This document shows positions 2,224 through 4,395 of a stretch of DNA of 4,395 bases, piece by piece. The stretch is from IMG/VR virus record IMGVR_UViG_2531839237_000023, one strand, 5' to 3'. The notes under the pieces were generated by a model. The model saw only the letters and a list, made by a program, of their open reading frames with translations, had not been told where the DNA came from and did no database searches. The first letter of the stretch is position 1. Each line of letters opens with the position of its first letter. A program made the position numbers and the translations under genes. This stretch comes from a virus (taxonomy: Duplodnaviria; Heunggongvirae; Uroviricota; Caudoviricetes).

Positions 2224-2314
2224 GGATATATAGTGATGAGGGTTATGTTTTCTGTGTTTATAATTAACATGTTTATTTTTTGATGGTCATGTATTGTGGA
2301 AGGTAGATAAAATG

Positions 2315-2343
2315 TTGCCTGGTGAATTGAAAATATTGATAAT
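2315..2343 (+). promoter_or_regulatory. Candidate sigma70 promoter upstream of the CPBP gene (-35 TTGCCT 2315-2320, 17-bp spacer, -10 GATAAT 2338-2343); possibly the prophage late promoter PR'
   Basis: Hexamers read directly from sequence, 4/6 and 5/6 matches to consensus with optimal spacing. A perfect TATAAT also occurs at 2259-2264 but lacks a good -35. The Q-to-CPBP intergenic region 2224-2374 is very AT-rich. Which element, if any, is PR' with its Q-utilisation site cannot be decided from sequence. Confidence 0.3.
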
Positions 2344-2374
2344 CAATCTTCATCATTAAATAAAAGGAGTGCTT

Positions 2375-3193
2375 ATGTGGATTGTGTTAGTACTGTCACT
2401 GTCAACTCTCAGTTGGCATAAGGTAGTGGCTTTTTCATTGTTGACGGTGTCTGTTGTCCTGGCTGTGCTTAATGATATTATTGATTGGTCGGTGTTATTT
2501 TTTGTTGCTACAATCGTTTTTTTTATTATTTTGAAGTTCAACTGGAAATATAACGCCTGGGCTAAATCTATATATGAAGTTGGCATAGTTTTATCAGCCA
2601 TAGCATTATTTTTCCATCTATGGCCAGGGTTTCACAATCCTGTAGTGCTAAATTCTGTTACTGTTGGCCCTCAAAGTACTCCCTATACAATGTATTTTAA
2701 TTTTGATAAAGCGCTGGTGCCATTTTTGTTAGTCCTGTGTACATCTTCTTTGTTTAAAAAAGAAGTAAAATCAGAAGTGTCTTTGTGGAAGTGGGGGGCT
2801 CTGTCGCTCTCTGTTCCTCTTATCCTGTTTTTGGCTGTTTTTTTTGGTGGATTAAAGCCAGAGATTCATTTTCCTGAGTGGTTGCCAGAGTTTATATTGG
2901 CTAATTTGTTTTTTGTGTCTCTGGCAGAGGAATCATTATTTAGAGGGTATATTCAATCACGGCTATCAGAAGTAACGTCTCCATTGGTTGCATTAATTGT
3001 GGCGGCTTTGTTGTTTGGTTTTTATCACTATTCAGGTGGTGCTTTACTTGTATTATTTGCCACGTTATCTGGTGTTGTGTATGGATTGTCATGGATGTGG
3101 AGTGGGCGTTTGTGGGTTGCCACCCTTTTCCATTTTGGTTTGAATCTGTGTCACTTGTTATTCTTTACCTATCCATTTTTAAAACATAATTGA
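2375..3193 (+). CDS. CPBP family intramembrane glutamic metalloprotease (CAAX protease / Abi family), 272 aa, polytopic membrane protein
   Basis: SD AAGGAG at 2364-2369 with ATG at 2375 (the track's GTG at 2369 sits too close to the SD). Protein is highly hydrophobic with multiple predicted TM segments and carries the three CPBP motifs in canonical order: EESLFR (motif 1, EExxxR), FGFYH (motif 2, FxxxH), HFGLN (motif 3, HxxxN). The gene is much more AT-rich than the upstream phage genes. Confidence 0.85.
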   Translation: MWIVLVLSLSTLSWHKVVAFSLLTVSVVLAVLNDIIDWSVLFFVATIVFFIILKFNWKYNAWAKSIYEVGIVLSAIALFFHLWPGFHNPVVLNSVTVGPQSTPYTMYFNFDKALVPFLLVLCTSSLFKKEVKSEVSLWKWGALSLSVPLILFLAVFFGGLKPEIHFPEWLPEFILANLFFVSLAEESLFRGYIQSRLSEVTSPLVALIVAALLFGFYHYSGGALLVLFATLSGVVYGLSWMWSGRLWVATLFHFGLNLCHLLFFTYPFLKHN

Positions 3194-3273
3194 TTTTTTC
3201 TATGGTTTTAAATTTATAAGACTGAAAAATAGCAGGACGTGACATTTGCATGAAAAATATGCACGGCAAAGCA

Positions 3274-3287
3274 TTTACGTACGTAAA
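3274..3287. repeat. Perfect 14-bp palindrome TTTACGTACGTAAA; nearby shorter inverted repeat TGCAT-N7-ATGCA (3247-3263)
   Basis: Read directly; the sequence equals its own reverse complement. Located in the 286-bp intergenic region between the CPBP gene and the small winged-helix gene. Candidate dimeric-regulator operator; function unknown. Confidence 0.3.
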
Positions 3288-3334
3288 AAATCAGGTATGC
3301 TGTTAAGAGTGGTTATTTCGCCGCATAGCTTGAC

Positions 3335-3356
3335 CCCGCCTCTGAGCGGGTTTTTT
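3335..3356 (+). terminator. Candidate rho-independent terminator (5-bp all-GC stem CCCGC/GCGGG, 6-nt loop, T6 tail) downstream of the CPBP gene
   Basis: Stem 3335-3339 / 3346-3350, loop CTCTGA, then TTTTTT 3351-3356. Short stem, so moderate confidence. A second CCCGC at 3360-3364 could alternatively pair with the GCGGG arm. Confidence 0.5.
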
Positions 3357-3479
3357 GTGCCCGCAAAGTAGCGCAGTGCGTTAAATGTGCTGGTAGTTAT
3401 TAATACAGGTCTTTCAGCTTGCTGGCTTTTTCGACAAGAGTTATTGGTGTGTCACGTTAACCGGAAAGGGTAAAAAGAC

Positions 3480-3677
3480 ATGCTGAAACAGCAGGATATG
3501 ACAGAAACCGCCAGAGTTGTGTTTGATGAATTAAGCGTCACCGAACCGGCGACAGTCGGGGAGATTGCGCAGAATACTTACCTTTCACGCGAACGCTGCC
3601 AGTTAATACTGACCCAGCTGGTTATGGCGGGTCTGGCAGACTATCAGTTCGGTTGTTACAGACGCCTTCAGTCCTGA
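3480..3677 (+). CDS. Small (65 aa) putative winged-helix DNA-binding protein (PapI/FaeA-like pattern)
   Basis: ORF from the track. SD-like GGAAAGGG at 3463-3470 before ATG 3480. Sequence pattern TVGEIAQNTYLSRERCQLILTQLVMAGLA resembles small winged-helix regulators. Stop codon TGA (3675-3677) lies inside a strong terminator hairpin. Family assignment is inference. Confidence 0.55.
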   Translation: MLKQQDMTETARVVFDELSVTEPATVGEIAQNTYLSRERCQLILTQLVMAGLADYQFGCYRRLQS

Positions 3678-3691
3678 AGGCTTTTTTATTT
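3664..3691 (+). terminator. Rho-independent terminator: 7-bp stem GCCTTCA/TGAAGGC, 4-nt loop GTCC, tail TTTTTTATTT
   Basis: Perfect inverted repeat 3664-3670 / 3675-3681 followed by T-run 3682-3687; + strand specific (no T-run on the complement). Immediately terminates the 65-aa ORF. Confidence 0.8.
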
Positions 3692-3711
3692 GTGGTAAAT
3701 GGGCGGCTGGT

Positions 3712-3719
3712 GGGGGGGG
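3712..3719. repeat. Homopolymeric G8 tract within a G-rich block (GGGCGGCTGGTGGGGGGGGCGG, 3701-3722)
   Basis: Read directly. Lies between the terminator at 3664-3691 and the candidate promoter of the AraC-family gene. This is a potential slipped-strand mispairing site. Confidence 0.9.
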
Positions 3720-3747
3720 CGGCACCTGTCAGTCCTTTGCTTATGTG

Positions 3748-3778
3748 TTGATGATAATTTACCTTTTGGGGCTATAAT
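3748..3778 (+). promoter_or_regulatory. Candidate sigma70 promoter for the AraC-family gene (perfect -10 TATAAT 3773-3778; weak -35 TTGATG 3748-3753 at 19-bp spacing)
   Basis: Hexamers read directly. The spacer is suboptimal and there is no extended -10 TG. Location is appropriate, about 35 bp upstream of the ATG at 3814. Confidence 0.3.
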
Positions 3779-3813
3779 TGAGCTAACCAATTGCTAATGA
3801 AAGTAAAATTATA

Positions 3814-4395
3814 ATGGCTGTTGTCTGTTCAGTTATCATGGTTTGCTCCCCAATTAATATTTTTCTTGAAAAGGATACGTTGTCACTTAAGCCAGGCTCA
3901 GTCGTTCTGGCCACCAAATGCATCAGGGAGCTTTTCCTTATGCATTATGGCAAAGTTAAAATTGTCGATATAAGCGAATCCGTCGTAAGTCAATATCTGG
4001 AAAGTCAGCATAAGCTGACGAGGACTCGTCTGACTGACATTCCGCTTTACCTGTTGCTGGAACCCAACAATCCTGCGTTGGCTGCGGCTTTAATTACCAG
4101 CCAGGGATTTTCCGGAGAGGTCACGGATATGTTTCTTATGATGGCCTGCCTGTCTCTGTTTGAAACAGATGAACGGATATTATTATTTTTAAGTGGATGT
4201 TTATCCAGCATAAGTGCCAAAGTCAGGGCGATAATTCAGACAGATATATCAGCAAGCTGGACGCTTGGTGCGATTGCTCTACAGTTGCATATGAGTGAGA
4301 GTTTGTTAAAGATAAAACTGAAAAATGAAGGGGGCATGTTCAGTCGCTTGTTGCTGGAAGAGCGGATGCGTGTTGCTGTAAATATGTTATGTTCC
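3814..4395 (+). CDS. AraC/XylS-family transcriptional regulator, YdeO/AppY/GadX-like subgroup; 3' end truncated by window edge (194 codons present)
   Basis: Frame open from 3787 to the window end with no stop, checked codon by codon. N-terminus MAVVCSVIMVCS resembles the YdeO/AppY N-termini as recalled (M..VCSV..). C-terminal portion SISAKVRAIIQTDISASWTLGAIALQLHMSESLLKIKLKNEGGMFSRLLLEERMRVAVNML is the first HTH of an AraC-type DNA-binding domain. Alternative start ATG 3838. AT-rich with a weak RBS, typical of horizontally acquired AraC regulators. Confidence 0.8.
   Translation, partial: MAVVCSVIMVCSPINIFLEKDTLSLKPGSVVLATKCIRELFLMHYGKVKIVDISESVVSQYLESQHKLTRTRLTDIPLYLLLEPNNPALAAALITSQGFSGEVTDMFLMMACLSLFETDERILLFLSGCLSSISAKVRAIIQTDISASWTLGAIALQLHMSESLLKIKLKNEGGMFSRLLLEERMRVAVNMLCS

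Follow-up and report, generated by a model that had tools for sequence, protein, structure and literature searches.

Genes Z1787, Z1788 and Z1789 are very probably present as three stacked cassettes behind Q in a lambdoid prophage segment of enterohaemorrhagic Escherichia coli type

INTRODUCTION

The stretch of DNA analysed here (hereafter the window) comprises 4,395 nucleotides (nt) of the Caudoviricetes virus record IMGVR_UViG_2531839237_000023 and covers a lambdoid prophage's nin region at its right-hand end. Behind the gene of the antiterminator Q, which ends at position 2223, it carries three genes in positions 2224-4395: a gene for a CPBP (Rce1-like) intramembrane protease, a gene for a 65-amino-acid (aa) winged-helix protein (hereafter the small gene) and the 5′ part of psr, a gene for a regulator of the AraC/XylS type. 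An earlier note, made from the sequence alone, regarded the trio as AT-rich cargo without a described counterpart, perhaps a module for lysogenic conversion or phage exclusion. The question raised by this locus is whether the three genes form a new system or something already known. The analysis showed that the segment is a variant copy of one already annotated in the reference genomes of enterohaemorrhagic E. coli (EHEC), and not a new three-gene system. It very probably corresponds to Z1787-Z1788-Z1789 (Sakai ECs1085-1087) of an EHEC-type lambdoid prophage, in which the interval from Q to the phage tRNA genes holds a stack of three independent cassettes.

RESULTS

The trio corresponds to genes annotated in reference EHEC genomes

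Jandu et al. (2009; PMC2654852) assigned Z1787 to O-island (OI) 50 and described it as a putative protease. Both published reverse transcription-PCR (RT-PCR) primers for Z1787 match the window exactly, at 2392-2412 on the plus strand and at 2867-2886 on the minus strand; this exact match lies in the CPBP gene, indicating that the trio is Z1787-Z1788-Z1789. The EDL933 gene table (PMC4048457 supplement) gives the order Z1785 (endonuclease), Z1786 (Q), Z1787, Z1788 and Z1789, the last labelled 'putative envelope protein', followed by a gap in the numbering (Z1790-1792 are unlisted) and then by the holin gene Z1794. Sakai has three tRNA genes at the place where the EDL933 table skips Z1790-1792: its prophage Sp4 runs from ECs_1082 to ECs_1087 and continues with ileZ1, argN1 and argO1, ECs_1085 being labelled 'phage CAAX amino terminal protease family protein' and ECs_1087 'AraC-family transcriptional regulator'. 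The gene order was confirmed in Sakai, EDL933, O103 and PV15-279, and all three post-Q genes are annotated in hundreds of RefSeq genomes. The name 'putative envelope protein' presumably stands for EnvY-like, EnvY being a member of the AraC family. Taken as a whole, the window is about 95% identical to lambdoid prophages of O26, O103, O145, O45 and related EHEC, and its cargo part alone is 98-99% identical. The view that the trio is an undescribed system thus did not hold: two of the three genes have published phenotypes, Psr being well characterised and Z1787 partly studied, and the small gene is a ubiquitous phage gene.

The three genes are distributed as separate cassettes

Gene counts were taken among 5426 complete E. 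coli genomes. The CPBP gene was found in 572 genomes (577 places), with 548 of the 572 records at an identity of at least 99%; the small gene was found in 2268 genomes (4241 places, up to seven per genome) and psr in 726 (1324 places). The small gene and psr occurred together in 725 genomes, and the whole block, covered to at least 80%, in 540. The distribution is strictly nested, from the small gene through psr to the CPBP gene, and the expectation of the earlier note that the genes would co-occur as a functional unit was not borne out. The small gene also has other neighbours. It lies directly 3′ of several unrelated Q types and 5′ of a DNA methyltransferase gene, as in Stx2_EH2201 and strain 23555; in phiP27 it stands between a GIY-YIG nuclease gene and a DNA methyltransferase gene; and it is accompanied by psr without the CPBP gene in EDL933 OI-57 and phiSTEC1575-Stx2k. 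In Sp4 of O157:H7 (Sakai ECs_1086, L009:48343-48582; PV15-279, L008:10106-10302), the small gene has lost 1 bp after codon 49, and 30 unrelated residues stand in place of the conserved C-terminal wing; the adjoining CPBP gene and psrA are intact there, and the window copy of the small gene is intact. The nested counts, the alternative neighbours and the Sp4 frameshift together indicate three stacked cassettes rather than a unit. Co-occurrence across independent lineages, the mark of a conserved three-gene system, was not found. The near-clonality of the CPBP copies means that the neighbourhood they have in common counts for little as independent evidence and amounts essentially to one evolutionary event.

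Three cassettes can be delimited. In cassette A the QuuD-like Q allele is joined through an AT-rich spacer to the CPBP gene, whose catalytic motifs are intact. Cassette B consists of a terminator, a conserved leader and the 65-aa gene with its own terminator; it is backbone-like, stands 3′ of varied Q genes and is present in thousands of enterobacterial prophages. Cassette C consists of a promoter-like site and the gene of the AraC regulator of the PsrA/PsrB family, and elsewhere its slot is filled by a DNA methyltransferase gene.

The AraC-type regulator is a predicted member of the Psr family

The psr gene starts at ATG 3814 on the plus strand, and its open reading frame (ORF) leaves the window at 4395, so that the 5′ 194 codons are present; in relatives the full length is 237 aa, and the window end falls inside the DNA-binding domain. 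The window sequence is identical in 190/193 aa (98%) to the copy of EDL933 OI-57 (Z2104, PsrB) and in 176/192 aa (92%) to the copy of Sakai Sp4 and PV15-279 (Z1789, ECs_1087, PsrA). PsrA (Z1789) and PsrB (Z2104) have been described as prophage-encoded AraC-like regulators with 90% identity (PMC10877973, PMC8565820). Comparison of the Sp4 AraC protein with that of EDL933 OI-57/CP-933O, encoded by the only AraC-like gene in a 50-kb stretch at the expected position, gave 215/237 identical residues, and this 91% matches the published PsrA/PsrB figure. The Psr proteins induce gadE and yhiF, bind to the promoters of hdeA and gadE, increase resistance to acid and exert an indirect repression on the type III secretion encoded by the enterocyte effacement locus (LEE) (PMC10877973, PMC8565820); a psrA deletion phenotype has been reported in O157, according to review. 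Sequence identity and the Q-to-tRNA location in the prophage argue for assigning the window gene to the Psr family. As in PsrA/PsrB of EHEC O157:H7, the protein of the relatives has 237 aa and its gene occupies the slot after the small gene and before the ileZ/arg tRNA genes; the PsrA/PsrB prophages also carry a gene of the PerC/Pch family, as do the relatives of the window. Unlike PsrA and PsrB, the window allele is a mosaic cut by the window end, and its regulatory activity would follow by homology.

Full-length psr orthologues (92-98% identity) passed the thresholds of HTH_18 (36.6-37.8 against 33.6 bits) and HTH_AraC (35.3-50 against 26.6 bits). The partial psr of the window, which holds only the first part of the domain, reached 18.5 bits for HTH_AraC, below the threshold. 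The best NCBIfam match of psr was YdeO (NF007407; residues 1-229 against 1-230 of 253, E 2.8e-30), followed by GadX. YdeO itself was ruled out, as the score of 105.7 bits is far under the equivalog cut-off of 348, indicating that psr represents a YdeO-like paralogue family. YdeO, GadX and AppY of E. coli K-12 and PatE (Z0321) of EHEC are AraC/XylS activators of the GAD acid-resistance regulon, and Psr, according to the literature, targets this gadE/hdeA circuit too; like Psr, AppY and PatE are encoded on prophages. The window sequence is a patchwork, with ERILLFL as in the Sp4 copy and ALQLH and NEGGMF as in the OI-57 copy (compared with L007:30274-30987 and L008:10440-11153), which suggests gene conversion between prophage copies within one genome.

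The CPBP gene encodes a putative membrane protease identical to Z1787

The CPBP gene (2375-3193, plus strand; 272 aa) belongs to its family by domain and by motifs: PF02517 was matched with 70.6 bits against a cut-off of 22.4, and the motifs EExxxR (E185, E186, R190), FxxxH (F214, H218) and HxxxN (H253, N257) show no variation among 17 homologues with identities down to 47%. The product is, by these motifs, probably an active membrane protease. Its Pfam domain and all three catalytic motifs are those common to the CPBP/Rce1-like family, which includes bacteriocin-immunity proteins and SpdC, LyrA and MroQ of Staphylococcus aureus. Within the family it falls into a separate enterobacterial subfamily, whose members have about 275 aa and share a conserved HLxPGFHNP...FNFDKALVPF segment, and, in contrast to other family members, it has no bacteriocin or regulator partner gene linked to it. 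No solved structure matched it by sequence.

The coding sequence is 100% identical at the DNA level to the O157:H7 copies, and the gene studied by Jandu et al. (2009; PMC2654852) is thus the same gene without any difference in sequence. In that work the Z1787 transcript was detected by RT-PCR and was up 2.7-fold on contact with HEp-2 cells, and deletion of Z1787 abolished the block that EHEC imposes on STAT-1 phosphorylation induced by interferon gamma (IFN-γ). The proposal made there that the protease may be released from the bacterium (PMC2654852) is hard to reconcile with a membrane-embedded CPBP protein. Besides Jandu et al. (2009), no report on a CPBP protein of an E. coli prophage was found in the literature.

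Homologues with about 50% identity occur widely among Enterobacterales. A single chromosomal context was inspected, that of a 53% identical protein in Enterobacter asburiae, and there the gene is a singleton beside unrelated genes. In another E. coli prophage (L014:4495-7571) there is a second, diverged pair of Q and CPBP genes, with aa identities of 81% for Q and 62% for CPBP; behind it lie a small gene in truncated form, an unrelated minus-strand ORF of 115 aa and tRNA-Arg and tRNA-Gly genes, and it has neither psr nor the tRNA-Ile/Arg/Arg set. Two further loci (L016 and L017), in records labelled Pseudomonas aeruginosa, hold CPBP genes at contig starts whose products are about 60% identical over 77% of the query; their neighbours, genes for M23 and S41 peptidases and for a polysaccharide deacetylase, make up a different chromosomal setting.

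The small gene and its leader are conserved across prophages

The small gene (3480-3677, plus strand) is Z1788, ECs_1086, L23 of phiP27 and orf47 of SfV. Its product matched PHROG 331 (E 3e-37), which is annotated as of unknown function. It scored below the threshold of Pfam TrmB (PF01978; 17.6 against 25.6 bits) and is thus outside that family by this measure; the RefSeq name 'TrmB family transcriptional regulator' overstates the sequence evidence. No solved structure matched it by sequence. The AlphaFold2 model (predicted local distance difference test score, pLDDT, 89) has the order helix-helix-helix-beta-beta, with helices at 4-16, 26-33 and 37-49 and strands at 53-56 and 59-62, and the best Foldseek matches were winged helix-turn-helix domains of IclR and MarR regulators (2g7u; template modelling score, TM, 0.81, root mean square deviation 1.5 Å). 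The model points to a winged helix-turn-helix fold and hence to a predicted DNA-binding protein. The gene identities proposed in the earlier note, namely CPBP protease, small winged-helix protein and YdeO/AppY-like AraC regulator, were accordingly confirmed by PF02517, the fold model and the end-to-end match to YdeO, respectively.

Homologues of the small protein with 75-98% identity occur in Escherichia, Shigella, Salmonella, Klebsiella, Citrobacter and Buttiauxella, and the gene is also present in SfV, phiP27, Stx2a, Stx2c, Stx2d and Stx2k phages, phage cdtI and mEp460. The orthologues phiP27 L23, SfV orf47 and PHROG 331 are 94-98% identical to it, and where the context was inspected they lie just 3′ of Q or one inserted gene away.

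The cassette of the small gene opens with an intrinsic terminator (3335-3360, plus strand; CCCGCC-loop-GGCGGG, then T6), which is a plausible tR′-type stop for transcripts from upstream, and continues with a non-coding leader that is conserved in a six-way alignment (3361-3479, plus strand). A hairpin about 130 nt upstream of the small gene was present in six of the six contexts compared; letters of the stem and the loop differ and the pairing is kept. The last approximately 70 nt of the leader are almost invariant across differing Q types and differing upstream cargo, more so than many coding regions. The copies of hairpin and leader compared were window 3335-3479, L011:4030-4178, L012, L007, L003 and L002. 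No Rfam match (E ≤ 1) was obtained in the leader. A structured RNA in the leader was rejected, there being no Rfam match and a predicted fold with z = −1.49. A second intrinsic terminator (3664-3690, plus strand; GCCTTCAGTCCTGAAGGC, then TTTTTTATTT) overlaps the stop codon of the small gene, and a σ70-like promoter match, ATGATA-16-TATAAT, follows at 3751-3778 on the plus strand; with 10 of 12 consensus positions it is the best such match in the window. With the terminators at 3335-3360 and 3664-3690 and the promoter-like matches, the moron-like architecture ascribed to the region was recognisable.

The Q gene, the spacer behind it and expression in the lysogen

The QuuD-like Q gene occupies 1852-2223 on the plus strand (PF06530, E 8.7e-52), starting at ATG 1852 as in RefSeq, with an alternative GTG at 1843; the match agrees with the earlier assignment of the region to a lambdoid nin region with Q ending at 2223. 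Its product has 85% aa identity to QuuD of DLP12 in K-12 and a distant sequence match to the phage 21 Q structures 6p18/6jnx (E 1e-7). Homology to K-12 DLP12 stops at the Q stop codon. As many genomes carry this Q allele together with the spacer and the beginning of the CPBP gene as carry the CPBP gene itself, 572 in each case, and Q belongs to the same low-GC cassette as the CPBP gene.

The AT-rich spacer (2224-2374, plus strand; guanine-plus-cytosine (GC) content 0.276, and 28% in 2224-2368) contains pairs of σ70-like hexamers and the ribosome-binding site of the CPBP gene, AAGGAG at 2363-2368. It is 100% identical between the O157 and O103 copies. By consensus scan its promoter-like sites, at 2284-2313, 2315-2343 and 2327-2356, are weaker than the match at 3751-3778. 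The late promoter PR′, or else another promoter active in the lysogen, may lie in this spacer.

Strand-specific RNA-seq of uninduced EDL933 in lysogeny broth (LB) gave values in reads per kilobase per million mapped reads (RPKM) of 5 for Q, 39 for Z1787, 11 for Z1788 and 7 for Z1789 (PMC4048457). The RPKM of Z1787 is thus about eight times that of Q, and the signal falls past the 3335 terminator. Because Z1787 is single-copy in the genomes examined, its RPKM should be little affected by cross-mapping. This pattern fits a lysogen-active promoter in the spacer between Q and CPBP together with substantial termination at the 3335 hairpin.

Downstream context, composition and left flank

In O103:H2 strain 12009 the order is hokD, DUF968 gene, rusA, Q, CPBP gene, small ORF and a helix-turn-helix (AraC-type) gene, followed by tRNA-Ile, tRNA-Arg, tRNA-Arg, a SASA esterase gene (nanS-p), holin, lysozyme and Rz genes and, beyond Rz, a PerC/Pch-family gene and the terminase gene. 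The gene order of full-length relatives supports the placement of the trio in the late leader between Q and lysis genes, and its position is the long late leader typical of EHEC lambdoid prophages. The trio does not replace the lysis cassette, as had been claimed; since full-length relatives carry the tRNA genes, nanS-p and then the lysis genes, that cassette is present and merely lies further downstream. Nor does the trio occupy the position of the Shiga toxin genes (stx): where present, as in phiSTEC1575-Stx2k, phiP27 and Stx2_EH2201, stx lies downstream of the tRNA genes and hence after the cluster.

The GC content is 0.538 in 1-1842 and 0.404 in 2224-4395, so that the markedly lower GC attributed to the three genes held for the region as a whole. 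It did not hold gene by gene: the values are 0.42 for Q, 0.378 for CPBP, 0.51 for the small gene and 0.423 for psr. Because Q is already low and the small gene is backbone-like, the break in composition is placed at the rusA/Q junction and, of the trio, only CPBP and psr are AT-rich. The best complete genomes are only about 95% identical to 1-1842, whereas Q through CPBP is 100% identical to the O157:H7 copies, indicating that the window is a recombinant of differing prophage lineages with a junction near the rusA/Q boundary. Promoter-like sites numbered 15 against 7.2 ± 3.1 expected, and terminator-like sites 10 against 4.5 ± 2.2 expected.

Upstream of Q the window holds a small ORF that ends at 427 (PHROG 1212), a DUF968 gene (429-1478) and rusA (1491-1862). 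The DUF968 protein gave a sub-threshold match to an HNH-type nuclease (PF16784, 22.8 against 26.6 bits), which spans its Cys/His-rich C-terminus. At 50-77 there is a strong terminator-like hairpin (AACCCGCTTCGGCGGGTT, then a T-run; region 20-113), which in relatives lies 3′ of the hokD (hok/sok-type) locus just upstream of the window.

DISCUSSION

The anatomy of the locus and the EDL933 RNA-seq suggest that in the lysogen the CPBP gene would be transcribed from a promoter in the spacer behind Q, with most transcripts ending at the 3335 terminator; psr, judging from the consensus match, may be transcribed from its own promoter. Psr would then activate gadE/yhiF and hdeA, raising acid resistance and indirectly turning off LEE type III secretion, as expected by homology from proteins that are 91-98% identical. 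Upon induction, what is known of lambdoid Q proteins leads one to expect that Q-modified RNA polymerase would pass both terminators, so that the three genes would be co-expressed with the late genes. The locus resembles known lambdoid morons, that is bor and lom of lambda, stx 3′ of Q and the nmpC/lc porin gene near quuD in DLP12 and PA-2, which are extra genes of the late leader with their own terminators and deviant composition; expression in the lysogen and an expected boost by Q would be shared. Judged by the features of morons, terminators are present, the promoters are candidates by consensus, the composition deviates for CPBP and psr and not for the small gene, and expression in the lysogen was seen for the O157 orthologue. 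In contrast to those morons, the window has three stacked cassettes, of which the middle one is backbone-like and not cargo-like.

Could the three genes nevertheless work as one functional module, either for phage exclusion or abortive infection or as a circuit in which the CPBP protein processes, or signals to, both DNA-binding proteins? The full block is 98-99% identical in 540 complete genomes, 94% of the genomes with the CPBP gene hold all of it, CPBP proteins of Gram-positive bacteria are generally known to act with regulators or as immunity proteins, and the CPBP family was historically labelled 'Abi'. However, the near-clonality of the CPBP copies takes most of the force from the first two points, and the nested distribution, the terminators that separate all three genes and the Sp4 frameshift of the small gene beside intact CPBP and psr genes argue against a module; the 62% identical CPBP gene stands after a QuuD-like Q without psr, and the homologue of E. 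asburiae, at about 53% identity, is a chromosomal singleton. In PADLOC-DB 2.0 no model was matched by CPBP, psr or Q, and the single match of the small protein (SWIM_XIII, E 0.0036) was judged to be due to chance, so that no meaningful match supports a defence role. We therefore consider one module extremely unlikely, and of the two functions proposed in the earlier note lysogenic conversion stands for the AraC gene, as a member of the PsrA/PsrB family, while phage exclusion does not. A regulatory unit of only the small protein and psr, with the small protein controlling or partnering Psr, has in its favour that psr is almost always immediately 3′ of the small gene, in 725 of the 726 genomes with psr, and that a joint query adds only about 31 places beyond the small gene alone. 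The small gene is nevertheless found without psr in about 1540 genomes, beside a DNA methyltransferase gene or other cargo; the two genes have a terminator and a distinct promoter-like site between them; in Sakai and PV15-279 the small gene, beside an intact psrA, loses its reading frame after residue 49; and a psrA deletion phenotype has been reported in O157. Such a two-gene unit appears very unlikely, and three independent cassettes account better for these observations.

Two further readings concern parts of the locus. One treats the Q allele and the CPBP gene as functionally paired, with the protease encoded in a constitutive PR′-to-tR′ leader and made in every lysogen. The Q allele, spacer and CPBP gene are invariably linked (572 genomes), there is a second, diverged pair, the eightfold excess of CPBP over Q and the drop in signal past the terminator in EDL933 are as this reading would have it, and the same terminator element is found about 70-150 bp 3′ of Q in prophages that have no gene between Q and the small gene. 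Against this, PR′ was not located, the spacer is not conserved between the two pairs, the genes may be linked by position alone, no phenotype relating to phage is known and related CPBP proteins are encoded by ordinary chromosomal genes. The pair is thus conceivable but unlikely, and the same holds for its proposed service to the prophage, by superinfection exclusion, envelope remodelling or the timing of lysis, rather than to host virulence. The other reading takes the small gene, its invariant leader of about 70 nt and the preceding terminator as a conserved regulatory module of the late leader, not cargo, that would modulate read-through into, or the timing of, late genes and stx. We regard this as rather improbable, and to the same degree its extension to thousands of prophages, from Q to the tRNA/stx region, including Stx2a, 2c, 2d, 2e and 2k phages. 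A weaker variant of it places the CPBP gene inside the constitutive PR′-tR′ leader, every lysogen then making a membrane protease.

Several observations weigh against our identification of the segment as Z1787-Z1789 in three independent cassettes, or against the functions attached to it. Reviews place Z1789 in OI-50/CP-933N (PMC10877973, PMC8565820), yet the potB-adjacent prophage of Sakai (Sp6) and of the 2014 EDL933 assembly has neither the CPBP gene nor psr and has a different Q. The cluster was not found in Sakai Sp10 either; it was located in Sakai Sp4 and, as small gene plus psr, in EDL933 OI-57. The discrepancy between OI-50/CP-933N and Sp4 points to a mix-up of lambdoid prophages in the 2001 assembly or to a drift of island nomenclature. 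The RNA-seq data come from the O157 orthologue, and the values of Z1788 and Z1789 may be blurred by paralogues in the same genome. The promoters are consensus matches only, including that at 3751-3778, about 36 nt 5′ of the psr start. A consensus scan did not locate PR′/qut and gave several weak candidates in 2224-2368, and alignment revealed no element conserved with the sequence 3′ of DLP12 quuD, phiP27 or the second pair of Q and CPBP genes (L014); of the two landmarks sought in the earlier note, only the lysis cassette, after the tRNA genes and nanS-p, was thus found. The psr allele of the window combines sequence of both O157 paralogues and breaks off where the window ends, and the function of Psr is drawn from reviews (PMC10877973, PMC8565820), that is from secondary sources. 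For the Z1787 deletion, complementation of the STAT-1 phenotype was only partial (PMC2654852). The 2001 EDL933 annotation, like the reviews, puts Z1787-Z1789 in CP-933N/OI-50.

Taken together, the segment is correctly filed as the Psr-type regulator locus of effector-carrying EHEC prophages, and not as a new defence or conversion system. The Psr locus ties the prophage content of these bacteria to acid resistance and to the control of type III secretion. Residual interest lies in two of its neighbours. One is a lysogen-expressed membrane protease with intact catalytic motifs, present in about 10% of complete E. coli genomes, mostly EHEC, whose only published phenotype is weakly supported; the other is a very conserved small protein, predicted to bind DNA, whose gene in many Shiga-toxin phages stands just 5′ of the tRNA genes and stx.

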